From Candidatus Moraniibacteriota bacterium (GTDB lineage Bacteria; Patescibacteriota; Minisyncoccia; Moranbacterales; GCA-2747515), in NCBI GenBank assembly GCA_040772365.1, contig JAXGYI010000008.1, positions 1-58,398 on the forward strand: a stretch of 58,398 bases of DNA, written 5' to 3'. Below are positions 10,369-58,280 of the stretch, piece by piece. Under the pieces are notes generated by a model. That model saw only the letters and a list, made by a program, of their open reading frames with translations. It had not been told where the DNA came from and made no database searches. Both the position numbers and the translations under genes were made by a program. The stretch's first letter is position 1, and every line of letters begins with the position of its first letter.

Positions 10369-10656
10369 ATGAAAACAATCGGATCCTACATTACAAAAAA
10401 ACAAAAAACACCACGTACACGCACAATTGACGCGCCAACAATTATGCATCTCTTCTCTCGTGCTGTACGCATGGAATATGGTCGACAGGGCGAGCAGAAC
10501 ATTCTTCCACATTTACTGAAAAATGATGTGCTTTTTGTTAAGATTGAAAACTCACTATGGGCGCAAGAGTTATGGATGCGACGAACATTTTTTGTGGAGC
10601 ACATCAACACTACTGTCGGCACCACAGTAATTACGGATATTAAAATCGCCACGTAG
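10369..10656 (+). CDS. DciA/DUF721-like protein
   Basis: 95 aa with the 'LFVKIENSLWAQEL' pattern; directly after dnaN. Confidence 0.65.
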   Translation: MKTIGSYITKKQKTPRTRTIDAPTIMHLFSRAVRMEYGRQGEQNILPHLLKNDVLFVKIENSLWAQELWMRRTFFVEHINTTVGTTVITDIKIAT

Positions 10657-10669
10657 GTGTGGCGATTTT
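10642..10669. terminator. Bidirectional intrinsic terminator
   Basis: AAAATCGCCAC-gtaggt-GTGGCGATTTT between convergent genes. Confidence 0.75.
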
Positions 10670-10678
10670 GTGCAGAGC

Positions 10679-27256: not shown

Positions 27257-29762
27257 ATGACATTGGAAACATTGCATCATGCGGACATGGTGCCATCGCG
27301 GAAAACCGTTCCTCCCACACACGCCGTGGAAAAACCACAATTATTCGAAGAGGAAGAGATGATGCGAGCGATTGGAGACGCACAAAAGGCTTTGGAAGAT
27401 CTCGGTTATGTGACACAAGGGGAGGATGTTGCCGTTTTTGATGCGCGAAAATTTCAAGAGGATTTCAGTAAAAAAAACAGTTGTTGCAAACACGGCGCTA
27501 TATCGTCTATATCGCAAATCACAACAAAGACTGACAAACATGGTATTTCACCTCTTTCGTGGCTACCGTGTCGTTTCTGTAGAAGACTATGCAGATGGTG
27601 TGCGTGATCCGAAAGACGTGATCTACGATCCGCGCAGCGCTGATGATGCGTTGACTATTGAAAAAATCCAACAAAGTCGCTTTTATTTCTTGCCACATGA
27701 GCTTATAACATTGATCCATTACGCAAAGACGCGCTATGGTGATTTAGAAGATGTAAACTTTCGAGAAGTGACACTGGCGGCCTTGATCTATCACCCGCAG
27801 TATGGGGACGCCTACAGGGATGAACAAACGGGGATACTTATGATGAAGGGACCAGACGGAGAATATAGAAAATTTTCTGCGGAACATTTGCGCAGGATGT
27901 ATGGCGCGTTTGAGGATGTGGAAAAGGGAGGCATTAGTGATGGACGAAAATTCTTTCGCACCGTAACGCCGCAACTTTTGGAAAAGGGGCTAGTGAAAAT
28001 GAGTGATATCGGCGTACAATCCGTAGAGGCTTCACGCACAGAGACAGATAAACGTATGATTGGGCGCAGAGGCACGGTGATGTTTGACAAGGTGCGTCAT
28101 ACACTGGGATCGCAATATGAAAATCACCTGGCATACAATCTTGGTGAACGATGTGGTGCGGTGGTGGCGCAAGCGGAGGATGGAACGAAAAATGTCGTTG
28201 CTACATTTAATATCGTCCCCTATGATCAGGCAAAAACAGATGTTCCGTTACAATCATATAAAATTGCCAATATTAAACAGGCACATCCACAAGCCTTTGA
28301 TGAGACATATTTTTATCATATGCACGAAGGGGAGGACATTGCACAATACAAAAAGAGGATTGAAACAATAGAGTCATTGCAAATCTTACTGCATTCCGAG
28401 AAATACTTGCAAGAGCAGTTAGGGATTTCCTTGGAAAAGTTCTCTTTTGCTGAACAGATGATGATTGCGCGCATGTTGAACAGCGTCAGTGTGTTGCACA
28501 AAGAAAAAATAGATCACTTTATTAGGATATTTGGCAACAACGGTCTCAAGTCCTTCCTCTCCCTCGAACACGGCGGTCACGACATGGGCAACAAGATCCT
28601 CCGCATCGGCGAAAAGTACGACCAAAACACCGCAGACGCCATCTTTGCTAAATACGCAGAGTTGGCAGATGTCACAGATAACATTGATGCGTATGTGAAA
28701 ACACAGTTTCAAGAACACGAAGACGTTGATCGCAAGAAAATTGGCGAGAAGCTTCTAGTCGATGCTAAAAATCTCCTGGAGTCCTATGCTGATAGGGAAG
28801 ACACGGCACGTGGCGAGGAAATCATTGCAGCATTGGAAAAGATCAATGCTCGCGTCGCCCTCACGGCGGAAATCATCCAACAGCTTCCGCGCGAAAGTGT
28901 GGCACATCTGGATCTTACCAAGCTCTCTGACGTAGAGCGACACATTGACCTTACGGCACAAAACTTGCACAGCATGCCGGAACTTCTTGCCAAAATGGAA
29001 GCGGTGGTGCATGATAAATTCCCCACGGGAGATGCCCAGTCTTTTCGCGAGGATTGTCTCAGCGAACGCAACAACGGTGTGACCGTGACACTTGCTAACG
29101 GAGAAATCCTCTCCTTTTTCATGAAAAAGAAGGTGGGAGAACACCTGTCCGAACTGGACTGGTTCAGTGCCAATCCTGATGCGCCGATCAAGGGCATTGG
29201 CGAAGCAACGGCACTGCTAGGCTTCAATCACGCGCGCGATAAAGATGAAAACTACTACGCCGTCGCCAAGCCACACATCAAATCACTCAGCACACTTATT
29301 GAACTGCAGGGATTCGTCGGATTTGGCGGTATGACAAAGGACGGGGAATACAAGCACCACTATATGCGCACACGTCGTTTGGCACACGAAATGCCTTATC
29401 ACATCAAACAATTATCACAAAATCACAATAATGCACTCCTCCACGATCTCCAAACAACTTGCGAAAAAAGCAACACCACCTATTCACTACAATACCAAGA
29501 CCGTACTTACGATGTTGCACGCGTAACATTTTTGGGTGTGACGCACGAACATGATGTCACGGACAAGGATGAGCACGGATGGCTGTATCAAGAAATGCAG
29601 AGGCAAACAAGCAAGGGCAGCATCCTTGTGCGCTACATTCCCGCATCAGACGCCAAAGACAACGTCACCTACTATGCCGTTTTTGCACCGGACCATAGCA
29701 CAGCCGATGAGCGCAGAGAAGTGGAAGACTATGTACGATCTAAAGATGTCCACAGCGCATAA
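27257..29762 (+). CDS. Large hypothetical protein (possible GNAT-like C-terminal region), split by a frameshift at an A8 run
   Basis: ATG at 27257 joins the 778-aa ORF if one A is removed from A8 at 27470-27477. Confidence 0.6.
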
Positions 29763-30511
29763 AAGAAGATCGTAAAAAGCTGCACAACACTGCGGCTTGT
29801 GATCACGACTGTTATATGCACATCGCTTTCTTGCGACGTGATATAGAGCGTATTGTCACATACAAGCAACTCACCACCTGGAAAATCAAAAGGCACATTC
29901 TTGGGAGGGACGATCCGCGTTTCACGCAATTGTGCGGCATCTGTTGCTTGTAACGCTTTGCCGGCGACATCACCAAATGCGATGGTGCGCGTAGAGATAC
30001 CATGCCGCATACGTTTTGCAACAAAATCTTTAAGAATGGCATGTGTTGCGGCATCCTCGTCACCGGGTAAGACTTTCACGAAAGACAAAATTTCATGACC
30101 GTGTGATGCATCGCGCAACAGGCGCGTATACATCTTTTTCATGCCGTCACGACCCTCATAGAATTCAATTCCCGGCTTGTTGTTAGCAATATTGTAGAGG
30201 GAAATCAATGATCCGATGTCGCTTTCCAAATGGTGCACGGTGTTTTGCGCATTGCGCACACGACTTTCTGCAAGTCCTTTGAGTACACTCGGATGCTTTG
30301 CCGCAAAAACGGCAACAGAACCTGTGCGCTCCTGCTTTTCTACAATACCTAGAACCACTAACTCATCTAAAGTCTTGTAGACGAGTCCGCGCTTCAACGG
30401 GGTGTTTTTTGCGATCAACCCTGCTTTTTGCGCACCGTGTGTGAGCAAGGATGTATAGACCACCACTTGATTGTCTGTCAGCCCAAGTTGTTGTAAAAGG
30501 GTATTTTCCAT
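29729..30511 (-). CDS. TrmB-family HTH transcriptional regulator
   Basis: 'LQQLGLT..Q..VY..LL..G....IAK...KRGLVYKTL..L...G.V' and 'PGIEFYEG..G'. Confidence 0.85.
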   Translation of the reverse strand: MENTLLQQLGLTDNQVVVYTSLLTHGAQKAGLIAKNTPLKRGLVYKTLDELVVLGIVEKQERTGSVAVFAAKHPSVLKGLAESRVRNAQNTVHHLESDIGSLISLYNIANNKPGIEFYEGRDGMKKMYTRLLRDASHGHEILSFVKVLPGDEDAATHAILKDFVAKRMRHGISTRTIAFGDVAGKALQATDAAQLRETRIVPPKNVPFDFPGGELLVCDNTLYITSQESDVHITVVITSRSVVQLFTIFFYALWTSLDRT

Positions 30512-30659: not shown

Positions 30660-30688
30660 TTGACAAATCTCTACAAACCTGCTATACT
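30660..30688 (+). promoter_or_regulatory. Consensus sigma70 promoter for the hairpin-rich small-ORF unit
   Basis: TTGACA-17-TATACT with an extended -10 (TGC). Confidence 0.8.
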
Positions 30689-30692
30689 ACTT

Positions 30693-31275
30693 TGTTACGA
30701 TGACATACTAAAAACAACGTAACACAGTACTTTAGAAAAAAACAGCGGCGTAAGAGATCGGATGTGTACAGTTTACTTTCAGACAAGCAATAGCTTGTCG
30801 CAAGGAGAGAGTGAATTGCTAGAAGATAGACATCTGACATCTTCCCGCAATCGTTCAACAACGATTGCATGTGATGGATACAAAAAAAGTGAGAGCATAG
30901 ACGAACAATCTATCCTCCTCCATCATTCGCACACGTGTGAGATGCATTGTGGCAGAGAGAGTCCACGATCCACTCCCGGAAAGCGGCATGACAATCACCC
31001 GATACCTTTTTCCAGAGAGATCGGTTGCATCTGACAGACTGAACACCTGTTCGGATGCAAGAATCTCTTTGTAAACAATGCACAGAGAACAGTTTTTTGA
31101 AAGTTCAATATTGCACATTATCATTTCCATATTTTGGATCATCCATTTAAGATTGCAACGCATTAACATCCATTGCAGTTTCAAATGGATGATTCAAAAA
31201 AAACTCCTGGATACTGTAATAGTGCAGTGTCCGGGGCAAAATTCTTTTCCCGCCAATTGGTGGGGAGGAGGAGAG
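30693..31275 (+). ncRNA. Long structured leader or ncRNA (about 580 nt), unclassified
   Basis: Near-continuous stems, many closing only with G-U pairs on the + strand; no credible ORF. Confidence 0.6.
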
Positions 31276-31467
31276 ATGGAGAAAACACAAGAAAATCCAT
31301 GCCCGCTCTGTGGCGGGTATGGGTTTTGGCACGGGTGGGACGGGCTCGGCTATGCCGCGCCCTGTCCCTGTGAAAAAACCTCTCTCCCGTATACGGAGCG
31401 AGGGTACGAAATCGTTCTGGAGTCGCCATGGCTCCAGAGCGATTGGGACACACGCCCCTTTACTTAA
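31276..31467 (+). CDS. Small zinc-finger-like protein (CxxCxGxG...CxC), 63 aa
   Basis: GGAGGAGG SD before the ATG at 31276; 'CPLCGGYG...CPC'. Confidence 0.65.
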   Translation: MEKTQENPCPLCGGYGFWHGWDGLGYAAPCPCEKTSLPYTERGYEIVLESPWLQSDWDTRPFT

Positions 31468-31490
31468 TAAGTAGAGGGGCGCGTCCCACC

Positions 31491-31687
31491 CGGTTTATGT
31501 GTTCCGGGTAAAAAAGAACACTCCTTTACCAGCTCACCAGGGAGGTTAATGGAGAGCACATTATCCCCAAGCAATTGGGGACGTCCGCTGAAAAACGCGG
31601 ACACGTTCAAAAGGGCAAGATCAGTTCAATGCTTGCCCCTCTTATCAAAGCTGCAAATAGGTTGTAGTTTTGTGGGAGATGTTCTTT
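31491..31687 (+). repeat. Structured intergenic element, copy 1
   Basis: About 24 differences over about 198 nt versus copy 2 (manual alignment); six hairpins. Confidence 0.9.
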
Positions 31688-31814
31688 GACGCAACATGTA
31701 CCACAAACTTCGCAAGATATGTGATGGAAATATTTTTTTCGCCACATACCTTGTGAATTTCACGCAAGAGTCGTGCCGGCGAAACCGGTTGCACATTTGC
31801 TCAAGGAGGAAAAA

Positions 31815-31997
31815 ATGAGCGAATTTATGAGAGTACTAGAAGTGCTGTTTTTAGCAGGCGTTATCTTGCTGGTGATAGCACTTGTAGTTGGCTCTGCCTT
31901 CCTTTATTGGAAGGTAACCGCGTCACTGCTGTTTGCGGTGGCGTGGGGGCTAGCCTTCCTTCTCAGTTTCTGCATGCTTTTTGGATGCGGTGATTGA
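31815..31997 (+). CDS. Small 2-TM membrane protein, 60 aa
   Basis: AAGGAGG SD before the ATG at 31815; two hydrophobic helices. Confidence 0.65.
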   Translation: MSEFMRVLEVLFLAGVILLVIALVVGSAFLYWKVTASLLFAVAWGLAFLLSFCMLFGCGD

Positions 31998-32310
31998 TAA
32001 GGGGCTGCCAGAGCCATAGTCGGAGCCAGCTGTGACCGACGAAAAACAAACTGGCAAAGTAAGAGAGTGTAATAGACCAGGAAAATCACTCTCAGGAGTT
32101 CTAGGGAAAACTCCATAAACATTTCCCTCTTCACTAGAGTTTTTATCCACATTACGATAAAAATTCTTAGAAGAGGTGCTCTTTGAAAAAAATACATATT
32201 TTCTCCACATGATTTCATTTGTGTGCTTCTGATCAGGCACGCAAAAATCCCCCGCATAGTGCGGGGGAGAAATCATAAATCCCGTCGGAAAGGCGGGGAG
32301 GAGAAAAAAT

Positions 32311-33199
32311 ATGTATCGTTACGAACTGTTGGATCCACGCCCTCAGGGCATGGAGGCCAATGAAAAAATCTTTGCCGACGCCCCGCAAGGGGTGCTCGGC
32401 ATCGAAGTCACCATCCCTCAGCTGGTGGAGCAGTGCCAGCTGGGGAATATTGACCCCCAGCACTCTGGGGGGAGGGATGATCTGGCGGCCATTGAGGTCG
32501 CCATTTCTCACCCCCTCCCACCTTCTGGGTCCGTGCTCGCCACTGTGTGGGCGGATCTGGATGCTATTGGCTCCATGGCTGTGCTCGCCCTGCGAGCACG
32601 TGGGGTCAATCTGACCCCTGCAATGGAGAGGGTATCGGCAGTCGCGGCTGCCGACAAGACAAAAGCAACAAAATGGCAGGGTCCGCGACCCCTGCCAACA
32701 GTGGTCTCCCCGTGGGGTAACTCCCCGGAGAAACCACTGGCCGCCATCGCGGCCGCTGTTGGGGACTTCCGGGTTCCCCTCAGCGACCGTCGCCCTGATG
32801 GAGCAGTGGCTCCTGACGGGCGAGGAGCCATCCTCATACCGCGAGCGGAGAGGGATGGCGGAGGCTCTTGCCTCCGGCCAGATCCAGATTGAGAAGGTGG
32901 GGGAGGTGGCAGTTGTCACCTCTACCCACAGAGCAGCCACAGGGGTGGGCTACATGCTCGCCCCAGTGGTTGTGGCCCTGAACCCGGAGTTTCGGGTTCA
33001 GGGTGGGGAGCCTCACCGGAAATTCACGATATGCCAGTTTAGTTCTGGCTACTGTGACATTTCTGGTGCCCTTCAAGAGCTCAGTGAGCTTGAGAAGGGT
33101 TGGGGTGGTTCGCCGAGTATCGGCGGGTCTCCTCAGGGAGTATCCTCCACCTTGACGACCGAGCAGGTCGTTGAGGTGATCACCCGTCACCTCCTATAA
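32311..33199 (+). pseudogene. DHH/DHHA1-like phosphoesterase-family protein, frameshifted near 32787
   Basis: GGAGGAG SD; 'NIDPQH' and 'ADLD' in the first frame, 'GWGGSPSIGGSP' in the second; visibly higher GC than its flanks. Confidence 0.6.
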
Positions 33200-33206
33200 A
33201 TACCCT

Positions 33207-33429
33207 CGGTTTGTGTGTTCCGGATAAAAAAGAACACTCCTCTACTGCTCACCATGGAGGTCAATGGAGAGCACACTGTCCCCAAGTAATTGGGGACGTC
33301 CGCTGAAAAACGCGGACACGTTCACGAGGGCAAGGTTTGTTCAATTCTTGCCCCTCTTATCAAAATCGCAAAATAGTTTGTGGTTTTGTGGGAGGTTGTT
33401 CTTTTCAATTTAAAAAGGAGGAGAAAATG
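33207..33429 (+). repeat. Structured intergenic element, copy 2 (extends through the SD and ATG)
   Basis: Matches 31491-31687; its 3' part matches 33891-33971. Confidence 0.9.
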
Positions 33430-33843
33430 AAAATAGCCGGAAAAAACTTTTCGTGCTTACAAGGCCTTGCGGTGTCTCATTCTCAAGAAAAGCAAAACGA
33501 GGAGGAAAAGGTGAAAATCGATGCCAATCATTATTTGTACAAAAAGGTGAATGGGGAGTTCCCTTGCTCTCAATGTGGCACGGAAATGGTATGGCCGGGA
33601 CGGGCCGATCAACCAGAGGAGAAGGTTGATGTATACTCCCATGGAGATGCGGAGTTTCGCTGCTCGTGCGGCAGTATCGAGCGCCGAAACGTTTGGCGCC
33701 GGATCGAGGTGGAAGGTATTCACTACAAGGTTGTTTCTTGTAGTGGATGCGGAAGAAAGGGGAATGCCTCAGTCCGGTCATCCGGTCCGCATTATTGTGG
33801 GGCATGTGCCATGAAAGACTATCTTTCCAATCCGAAGTACTAG
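33427..33843 (+). CDS. Small multi-zinc-ribbon protein
   Basis: AAGGAGGAG SD; CSQC, CSC, CSGC, CGAC; alternative in-frame GTG start at 33511 with its own GGAGG. Confidence 0.65.
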   Translation: MKIAGKNFSCLQGLAVSHSQEKQNEEEKVKIDANHYLYKKVNGEFPCSQCGTEMVWPGRADQPEEKVDVYSHGDAEFRCSCGSIERRNVWRRIEVEGIHYKVVSCSGCGRKGNASVRSSGPHYCGACAMKDYLSNPKY

Positions 33844-33864
33844 GACTGGAAAGAGAAAGAAGGT

Positions 33865-33971
33865 GGGTAAGGCAGTGAAAATTCATTGCTTTGCCCCTCT
33901 TATCAAGACTGCAAAATAGTTTGTGGTTTTGTGGGAGAGGTTCTTTTCAATTTAAAAAGGAGGAGAAAATG
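33865..33971 (+). repeat. Structured intergenic element, partial copy 3
   Basis: TTGCCCCTCTTATCAA...GTTCTTTTCAATTTAAAAAGGAGGAGAAAATG shared with copy 2. Confidence 0.88.
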
Positions 33972-34145
33972 AAGAGAGATGGCTTTTTGTTGATAGTTAT
34001 TTTGTTGGTTGCGGCTGCTCTTCGCCTTTTCCAACTCGCGGCAGCAGCCAGCGAGACGGAAAAGTTGGAGGGATACCTGGCGGAAATCCGTCAGGTAAAT
34101 GCAGAGTTTCGCCAGCAGATAAAGCAGGCGGAACAAAAGCATTAG
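33969..34145 (+). CDS. Small protein with an N-terminal TM/signal segment and a coiled coil, 58 aa
   Basis: AAGGAGGAG SD; hydrophobic N-terminus followed by a heptad-like charged tail. Confidence 0.65.
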   Translation: MKRDGFLLIVILLVAAALRLFQLAAAASETEKLEGYLAEIRQVNAEFRQQIKQAEQKH

Positions 34146-34149
34146 CCCG

Positions 34150-34194
34150 CAGGGTCCAAGTATCGCCAATGTGCGAAAATGGACCCTGTTTTTT
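34150..34194 (+). terminator. Intrinsic terminator ending the small-ORF unit
   Basis: CAGGGTCCA...TGGACCCTG followed by TTTTTT. Confidence 0.75.
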
Positions 34195-34289
34195 GTAGAT
34201 CATATCACCCATACGTGCTGTGTATTTTTAGAAGAAAGGTGTATCTGTATAAAGTACAACACAGTGGTTCGCACGTCATGTAACTCCTA

Positions 34290-58207: not shown

Positions 58208-58280
58208 GGGCCATTAGCTCATTTGGTAGAGCGCATCCATGGCATGGATGAGGTGACCGGTTCGATTCCGGTATGGTCCA
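58208..58280 (+). tRNA. tRNA-Ala (GGC), CCA not encoded
   Basis: Cloverleaf GGGCCAT/ATGGTCC with G3-U70; anticodon arm CATCC-ATGGCAT-GGATG; T-loop GGTTCGATTCC; upstream TGCTACAAT extended -10. Confidence 0.95.

Follow-up and report, generated by a model that had tools for sequence, protein, structure and literature searches.

A covarying two-hairpin RNA motif between genes of small-gene arrays in Candidatus Moraniibacteriota

Introduction

Repetitive extragenic palindromic sequences and bacterial interspersed mosaic elements (REP/BIME) of proteobacteria are mRNA-stabilising intercistronic hairpins, which are dispersed in hundreds of copies per genome and are tied to the Y1 transposases termed RAYT. 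The RNase III signals in the mRNA of phage T7 are related long irregular hairpins at gene junctions, and the cutting leaves a hairpin at the 3' end of the upstream segment. The attC sites of integrons are characterized by the inverse core RYYYAAC and the core GTTRRRY at their two ends and stand behind each cassette, also the last, with an integrase (a tyrosine recombinase) encoded at the array head, and the targets of ANTAR-domain regulators are two short hairpins with conserved hexaloops. Here, a structured repeat is described from a contig of a Candidatus Moraniibacteriota bacterium (assembly GCA_040772365.1, contig JAXGYI010000008.1, 58,398 nucleotides, referred to as the window), which is the contig C8 of a 14-contig genome of 918,769 bases with a completeness of 99.4% (labelled G000). 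The repeat contains a conserved module of about 95 nt, in which a compact hairpin (P5) is followed by a long hairpin with a bulge (P6) and then by GUUCUUU as a single-stranded tail. The module is a real, uncatalogued and order-wide structured RNA motif, of which the functional kind is broadly familiar and the genomic setting is unusual.

The module was compared with these systems on the basis of the general properties of TrmBL2, REP/RAYT, attC, ANTAR and T7 RNase III signals. Like REP/BIME, it consists of generic hairpins within operons near stop codons, presumably co-transcribed and indifferent to the flanking genes, but it is present in 1-10 clustered copies per genome (three within 2.5 kb in G000) and is a fixed two-hairpin unit with a conserved bulged-U helix; moreover, the Y1 family PF01797 gave 0 matches in G000 (3 copies) and in the genome G007 (8 copies), and elsewhere its matches were on non-array contigs. 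With the T7 signals it has in common a family of long hairpins with internal irregularities, repeated at the junctions of one transcription unit. It differs from them in its host, a bacterium of the candidate phyla radiation (CPR) without phage matches, in the sequence-invariant pairs of P6 and in that its cleavage is only predicted. Integron attC arrays are similar in their same-strand small unrelated genes, strand-specific structured repeats and head promoter by a divergent gene. However, the module arrays are without an integrase, the module has two hairpins and not one, its G-U-rich helix is on the mRNA strand, no module follows the last cassette, and the tail does not conform to the core motif, the complementary AAAGAAC being present only in the two full copies of G000. 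The targets of EutV/AmiR-type ANTAR proteins are likewise two-hairpin RNAs, repeated at several junctions in a cluster that has receiver-domain proteins in its vicinity, whereas the hairpins of the module are much longer, its loops are off the hexaloop rule, and only Response_reg, with no ANTAR domain, was obtained by Pfam scans of the array proteins. From a canonical intrinsic terminator the module differs in the lack of a U-run after P5 and in the weak, not G+C-rich stem of P6.

Results

Structure and covariation of the module

Two covariance models were used, namely R1 (the P6 core, built from 14 copies) and R2 (built from 56 copies), and the P6 alignment of the 56 distinct copies was fitted by the model, which favours structure. 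In this alignment 93.4% of the cells were paired, compared with 38-51% when the 3' partners were slid by 1-3 columns, and the corresponding values in a MAFFT alignment of 14 copies were 94.1% and 44-50%, respectively. P6 comprises 17 bp with an invariant A-U-rich middle, a bulged U and one mismatch. Changes on both sides occurred at 11 of the 17 pairs (116 cells), and the covariation score was reached by none of 500 shuffles. G-U outnumbered A-C by 138 to 18 (58 copies x 17 pairs), and by 66 to 2 at the inner 11 pairs of 35 copies; because a double-stranded DNA palindrome would show both equally, the fold belongs to the single-stranded + strand. In 52 of 55 modules the + strand was also the more stable of the two strands on folding, and the opposite-strand model scored far lower (e.g. 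25.7 as against 59.5 bits).

Within P6, A-U is kept at three positions in 56, 56 and 54 of the 56 copies, and a C-G pair beside the bulged U in 45 of them, while the adjacent pairs covary freely. The conserved part is palindromic (CAAAA...TTTTG) and contains a nearly invariant U-run. The outer pairs 3' of this U-run also covary, and therefore it is the complete hairpin that is selected in the read-through RNA. The core is 51 to 59 nt long among the copies, and the tail is GTTCTTT or GTTCATT.

P5, a hairpin of 7-14 bp with a purine-rich 5' arm that directly abuts P6, was assessed by fold position, and P6 by alignment. A strict rule (compact hairpin of at most 35 nt, -10 kcal/mol or better, ending at the core boundary) was used in place of a looser one that was passed by about one third of random windows. 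By this rule P5 was found at its fixed place in 43 of the 55 testable copies (3 further copies at a locus edge or beside N were dropped), compared with 13 of 1100 shuffles and 31 of 1990 natural windows (1.2-1.6%), and in 9 of the 12 remaining copies a weaker hairpin is present at the core boundary. The P5 sequences are diverse (50 distinct ones among the 53 recovered under the looser rule), and the loop, of 4 nt in 21, 6 nt in 13 and other lengths in 18 of 52 copies, has no common pattern. The structure of the module is accordingly stated with high confidence. Selection on a single-stranded + strand fold had been proposed in a first-pass annotation made from the letters of the window, and it is strongly supported for P5 and P6 by the covariation among homologues (found for P6 in the 56 copies), by the excess of G-U over A-C and by the greater stability of the + strand.

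Two other readings of the region were rejected. A Shine-Dalgarno-like GGAGGTGAT upstream of P5 is present in just 10 of the 56 copies and was not retained as a part of the module; an open frame through P5 and P6 was found in 18 of 53 copies, equally often on the opposite strand and in an inconsistent frame. A perfect extended Shine-Dalgarno-like motif (AGGAGGTGAT) was observed at a distance of 13-22 nt from P5 on its 5' side, not followed by a start codon, at several loci (L049 at 13860, L062, L064, L070 and others).

Copies in the window

Three copies, all on the + strand, are located in the window (Table 1), two full and one partial as the first-pass annotation had it. The full copies (31491-31687 and 33207-33404) are 88-92% identical, and the last 65-68 nt of the element are common to them and copy 3 (33882-33958). 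The direct-repeat search returned 31491-31529/33207-33245 (92%), 31532-31657/33247-33372 (89%) and 33348-33415/33891-33958 (81%), and by blastn with copy 1 against the whole genome (0.92 Mb) three places only were found, the other three matches being at E >= 1.09. The R2 scores of the cores were 55.7 bits (31636-31691), 67.7 bits (33351-33407) and 64.2 bits (33894-33950), respectively. The tail, ribosome-binding site (RBS) and start codon that belong to copy 3 (33940-33978) are 95% identical to the copy 2 equivalents. All stem sequences quoted in the annotation were present, as were the change of the P3 loop from GCAA to GUAA, the 5' arms of P6, which differ in all three copies and are kept paired by G-U, and the rebuilt P5 in copy 3, which forms a 14-bp hairpin of -21.4 kcal/mol.

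The full copies were folded at -75.3 kcal/mol (copy 1, z -4.55) and -80.8 kcal/mol (copy 2, z -7.13), each with 0 of 200 shuffles as stable, and the reverse strand of copy 1 was less stable (-68.7). P3-P6 are contained in both minimum-energy folds, P2 only in that of copy 2, and P1 in neither, since a long-range closing helix is formed by its 3' arm (AAAGAACA) and the conserved tail UGUUCUUU. The P2 loop and the CUCC upstream of it, which the annotation had named as the partners of a possible pseudoknot, are each identical between copies 1 and 2. Within P1-P4, the two copies differ at 9 of 104 positions and at none of the 54 stem positions (P = 0.0014 under a uniform assumption); this avoidance of the stems by substitutions is the sole evidence of selection there, as no covariation was seen, or was possible, with only two copies. 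P1-P4 gave no match in any of 11 genus relatives and are present in G000 alone, and so the six-hairpin element is a local elaboration of the widespread two-hairpin module. Thus, of the six-hairpin unit of about 200 nt first described, the stems are present, and what is conserved is its 3' third (P5, P6 and the tail). The Shine-Dalgarno-like motif found before P5 elsewhere may be related to the GGAGG that the G000 copies have in their P2 loop.

Distribution and catalogue status

Of 29 further family genomes searched by blastn with copy 2, 4 were matched, all of the same genus and in the 3' part only. With R1, the motif was detected in 9 of the 11 other genus genomes at E <= 0.01, in 8 of those at E <= 4.2e-10; the copies of each genus genome (1-10) are clustered and on one strand. 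With R2, an order sample of 151 genomes (12 families, 77 genera) was searched, and the module was found in 34 genomes, 7 families and 19 genera. G000 was the sole match in a class-level sample of 151 genomes including itself, where 5 of the 150 others are from families of its order. Among the named records that were scored, two had real copies, both Candidatus Moraniibacteriota.

In the Rfam 15 scan of the whole window at gathering thresholds, only a tRNA (58208-58280) was obtained, and a permissive scan (E <= 10, 31300-34200) gave none at threshold, the best match on the element being Chlorobi-1 with 19.9 and 16.0 bits as against 50; the annotation had likewise recognised no known family. Full-text literature searches returned no description of such a motif for Moraniibacteriota or other CPR bacteria.

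A phage link was rejected: PHROGs gave nothing for 10 proteins, 0 of 75 viral pattern matches were real (best 24.5 bits), and no module match was found by blastn in 50,697 phage or 72,556 plasmid records. The sensitivity of the pattern scans is limited, because only 21 of the 56 known copies are caught by the viral and genome patterns and 17 of 56 by the metagenome pattern. Tandem interspaced guide RNA (TIGR) arrays were also dismissed, being a different kind of repeat with short tandem units.

Placement, cargo and the neighbouring regulator

The module is located between same-strand open reading frames (ORFs) of at least 40 aa in 43 of the 56 copies; the median distance is 11 nt from the stop codon on its 5' side and 31 nt to the ORF that follows. 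Between the core end and the RBS there are 6 to >100 nt, and in the copy 2 fold the RBS is unpaired with the module. The cargo of the arrays consists of small genes, mostly without any family, with occasional receiver domains, radical-SAM/SPASM, B12-radical-SAM, ATP-grasp and methyltransferase genes.

At L051 (5833-7822), L062 (5896-7227) and L049 (5392-6243), radical-SAM/SPASM, ATP-grasp, B12-radical-SAM or methyltransferase genes are beside small Cys-rich ORFs and look like peptide-modification genes of the type that makes ribosomally synthesized and post-translationally modified peptides (RiPP). Tandem modules about 230-270 nt apart with no ORF of at least 40 aa between them were observed at L051 (3441-3615) and L049 (16151-16362), and one such gap holds a 12-codon ORF behind a strong RBS.

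In an all-against-all BLASTP, a TrmB winged-helix protein of about 240-280 aa was the sole family common across the loci (19 members, in 15 of 19 loci), and the flanking and downstream genes were otherwise non-homologous singletons. The family profile matches the archaeal TrmBL2 (PDB 5box) at full length with E 1.1e-9, the structure model has a predicted local distance difference test score (pLDDT) of 86.5, and the gene is usually divergent from the array. Among metagenome loci found by the RNA pattern alone, the regulator was within 2 kb in 6 of 9 module-positive loci (2 of the 6 being near-identical to loci already in the set) as against 0 of 71 chance-match loci. Across the order, the regulator family is in 88 of the 151 genomes, compared with 34 for the module, and has up to 17 copies per genome; co-occurrence at this level was set aside as uninformative, since the family is a large paralogous expansion. 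The repeat search of three TrmB-rich loci without the motif gave no analogous element, the repeats there being paralogous coding sequence.

The expansion of TrmBL2-like paralogs (G068:C7, G155, G095 and others), up to 17 per genome of about 1 Mb and often clustered, is unusual for reduced genomes, and these proteins could be a chromatin-type silencer family for acquired genes.

In the closest relative of G000, the genome G010 (88% identity between the two regulators), the left flank is kept to 31075 and the right flank from 34322 (81% identity), and between them only the modules are common. Contigs of the run X9 have loose ends at 31075 and 34365. Because G010 keeps the flanks with different cargo, and from the X9 loose ends, the array of small genes is, as a whole, a replaceable island, whose fixed site lies between the genes for the TrmBL2-like regulator and the T2SSE ATPase. 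The DNA contigs of the sequencing runs break at the repeats, with no joints listed.

Genes and signals of the array

The features of the array are listed in Table 1.

Table 1. Positions of the array features in the window
Feature	Position	Strand	Remarks
TrmBL2-like winged-helix regulator gene	29729..30511	-	divergent from array; Pfam TrmB 1.9e-11
Divergent head promoters	30660-30688 (+), 30566-30538 (-)		each TTGACA-17-TATACT, 11/12 matches, TG before -10
Small Cys-rich gene upstream of copy 1	31277..31467	+	63 aa; longer reading 129 aa, 31078-31467
Copy 1, full element	31491..31687	+	P1-P4 extension 31499-31602, P5 31613-31638, extended P6 31639-31678, tail GTTCTTT 31681-31687
Copy 1 stem P1	31499-31504/31516-31521	+	
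Copy 1 stem P2	31532-31539/31550-31557	+	
Copy 1 stem P3	31564-31570/31575-31581	+	
Copy 1 stem P4	31583-31588/31597-31602	+	
Copy 1 stem P5	31613-31619/31632-31638	+	
Copy 1 stem P6	31639-31678	+	
60-aa hydrophobic protein gene	31815..31997	+	128 nt downstream of copy 1; RBS AAGGAGG
Gene upstream of copy 2	32311..33199	+	two overlapping frames: 32311-32892 (193 aa), 32759-33199 (146 aa)
Copy 2, full element	33207..33404	+	P1-P4 extension, P5 33328-33353, extended P6 33354-33394, tail GTTCTTT 33398-33404
138-aa Cys-rich protein gene	33427..33843	+	start codon 22 nt after copy 2 tail
Copy 3, core module only	33865..33946	+	rebuilt P5 33865-33896, extended P6 33897-33937, tail GTTCTTT 33940-33946
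58-aa protein gene, last of array	33969..34145	+	start codon 22 nt after copy 3 tail
Canonical intrinsic terminator	34150..34195	+	stem CAGGGTCC/GGACCCTG, then six T; read from sequence

The arrays of G000, L049 and L051 were checked for promoters and terminators. Strong divergent head promoters of the TTGACA-17-TATACT type are also present in L049 and L051, and no sigma-70-like site was found in or after the three copies of the window; internal promoters were rejected, as one chance-level 9/12 match inside a copy of L049, and none in the window copies, was obtained. The scan called no + strand terminator at P5 or P6 in the three arrays. The last gene of the window array is followed by no module and by the canonical terminator instead; this terminator was not called by the scan, its loop of 23 nt being above the stated limit of 3-8.

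The first small gene had no match in Pfam (as the 129-aa reading), PHROG or PADLOC. The gene upstream of copy 2 has a G+C content of about 52% as against about 45% around it, and a DNA contig of the independent run X2 spans 31580-33317 without an indel. An assembly slip confined to this genome is therefore not the cause of the frame change; the gene is either a pseudogene or a case of programmed shift. A defence system was rejected, since PADLOC on 53 proteins gave four marginal matches only (E 7.5e-5 to 9e-4).

Three further hairpins were observed. An inverted repeat of 32 nt (31132-31199, 81% complementary, 4-nt spacer), has a promoter-like site (31097-31124) on one side and the first small gene on the other, and may serve as an operator or form a leader hairpin. 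A short way before the RBS of the 32311 gene, and within the + strand array, there is a canonical terminator-like hairpin with a T-run on the - strand (32248-32268), which gave weak anti-hemB/small RNA (sRNA) matches in Rfam. Between convergent genes at 10639-10671 there is a bidirectional terminator with an A-run, a stem and TTTTGT, in a layout like that of P6 and with a G+C-rich stem.

Discussion

Since the flanking genes are unrelated from copy to copy, the module is read here as generic operon punctuation, and our tentative preference, which falls short of an even chance, is for a module of intercistronic mRNA processing and stability. The structure of the module, its strand, its conservation and its placement are established by the data; transcription through the module, its cleavage and an effect on expression are what we infer, and the specific mechanism is offered with low to moderate confidence. 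The module would be transcribed within a polycistronic mRNA from the single strong promoter beside the TrmBL2-like regulator gene, and the long helix of P6 would be recognised and cut by a double-strand-specific factor such as RNase III; alternatively, the AU-rich tail may be cut by RNase Y. After the cut, P5 (or P5 and P6) would cap the 3' end of the upstream segment against exonucleases, so that each cistron might acquire its own stability and translation and newly acquired genes could be expressed from the common promoter. In G000, the P1-P4 extension of two copies, which pairs partly with the tail, might modulate access to the latter. The genome encodes RNase III (133.5 bits) and RNase Y, and neither Rho nor RNase E/G was found in it at its completeness of 99.4%. 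RNase III processing sites are helices of about two turns, and P6 with its 17 pairs, bulge and one mismatch is a candidate for such a site.

Several observations weigh against processing. The RNA run gave two small contigs, and the evidence from RNA is one contig of 179 nt inside the 138-aa gene (33581-33759), with no transcript ends and from a library that may contain DNA. As no linker separates P5 from P6, it is not evident that a cut would fall between the two. A sequence-specific protein partner is suggested by the bulged U and the invariant A-U pairs, features that RNase III is not known to need. Of the 56 copies, 13 are not between two ORFs of at least 40 aa, mostly at contig edges or as tandem copies with tiny ORFs. 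Furthermore, P5 falls into few discrete sequence types, of which identical ones are beside unrelated genes in different families (e.g. f1 and f9), and homology blocks between genomes end in modules in 24 of 478 cases as against 9.7 expected; both would fit a DNA-level or selfish element equally.

Leaky attenuation is the main rival, because P6 resembles a weakened copy of the terminators of the genome. P6 and/or P5 would then be inefficient terminators or pause sites that grade expression down the operon without Rho, an explanation that is unlikely and yet has to be taken seriously. P6 has the layout of the bidirectional terminator at 10639-10671 with G-C replaced by A-U and G-U, its U-run is nearly invariant, Rho was not found, and P5 directly follows the stop codon, the usual place of terminators. 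However, the scan calls neither hairpin on the + strand in three arrays, P5 lacks a U-run, the UUUUGU of P6 goes with a weak A-U/G-U stem, the covarying pairs 3' of the U-run are needless for a terminator, and the true end of the array is a canonical terminator without a module. Rather less probable is a trans-acting RNA-binding protein, an antiterminator or translational regulator bound to the bulged-U helix at every junction at once, in the manner of ANTAR/EutV or of coat-protein operators. The near-invariant A-U pairs, the kept C-G pair by the bulged U among freely covarying neighbours, the few P5 types recurring across families and the receiver-domain proteins recurring in the cargo agree with it, whereas no RNA-binding family was found among the array proteins, the sole conserved neighbour matches the DNA-binding TrmBL2, and the P5 loops are variable, commonest at 4 nt, with no hexaloop pattern of the ANTAR type. 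A double-stranded operator of the TrmBL2-like regulator is very improbable: the gene adjoins the array in nearly every locus, with the metagenome loci (6 of 9 as against 0 of 71) in agreement, and the conserved part of P6 is palindromic, but the asymmetry of 138 to 18 and the compensatory changes are unexpected for a protein-bound DNA palindrome, the divergent promoter region, in which the regulator site is expected, contains no copy according to the model, and the regulator family is far wider than the module. A ligand-sensing riboswitch or an independent sRNA gene is hardly to be expected either. The stable multi-hairpin fold and the strong RBS shortly downstream of copies 2 and 3 would suit it; however, the unrelated flanking genes make a riboswitch-like reading unlikely, what is conserved amounts to two plain hairpins and lacks a multi-helix junction, the RBS is at a variable distance and unpaired with the module, and no promoter is called consistently on or just before the copies.

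The module might also act as DNA, either as a single-stranded recombination site or cassette boundary like attC, or as a homology patch by which units of module and gene are shuffled, and this is considered improbable. The hypervariable cargo between conserved modules, the ends of the homology blocks, the identical P5 types beside unrelated genes, and a divergent gene with one promoter and a same-strand array, which mirrors an integron platform, speak for it, as does the comparison of the genomes G003 and G004, in which a run of 5 kb of extra cassettes in G003 starts at a module. On the other side, the far end of that indel is not at a module, and the boundaries of the whole-array replacement between G000 and G010, 31075 and 34322, do not coincide with modules. 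The ORFs scanned around the arrays of the window and of 18 related loci yielded no integrase or recombinase, the two tyrosine recombinases of G000 (PF00589) are on the other contigs C1 and C4, Y1 transposases are absent from G000 and G007 and TnpB from G000, the tail GTTCTTT does not fit GTTRRRY, and no module follows the last gene. Still more doubtful is the specific proposal that the module is the boundary mark of an integrase-free CPR cassette system, an integron analogue in which the TrmBL2-like gene and the divergent promoter would be a fixed platform and exchangeable units of module and small gene would be moved or captured by an enzyme that reads strand-specific hairpins. A selfish or neutral intergenic repeat of the REP type or resembling miniature inverted-repeat transposable elements (MITE), tolerated between genes with no host role, is given the same low standing as action at the DNA level in general. 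Its indifference to flanking genes, its patchy occurrence (34 of 151 order genomes) and its several copies per locus would be expected of such a repeat, but its 1-10 copies per genome are confined to regulator-linked arrays and to the mRNA strand, its structure has covaried in the long term across 7 families, it has no linked transposase, and no analogous element was found in the three TrmB-rich loci without the motif.

Structured RNA motifs with such covariation are rare finds, and the module marks a recurrent feature of the order, namely fast-changing arrays in which small genes share one promoter and have a paralog of an archaeal chromatin-type regulator next to them. Were the DNA-level reading correct, the module would represent a gene-capture system of a new kind. 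Knowledge of its mechanism would make clear how expression is balanced within operons that keep acquiring foreign genes in organisms that lack Rho and RNase E/G, and would also provide an 'insulator' part that is compact and portable.

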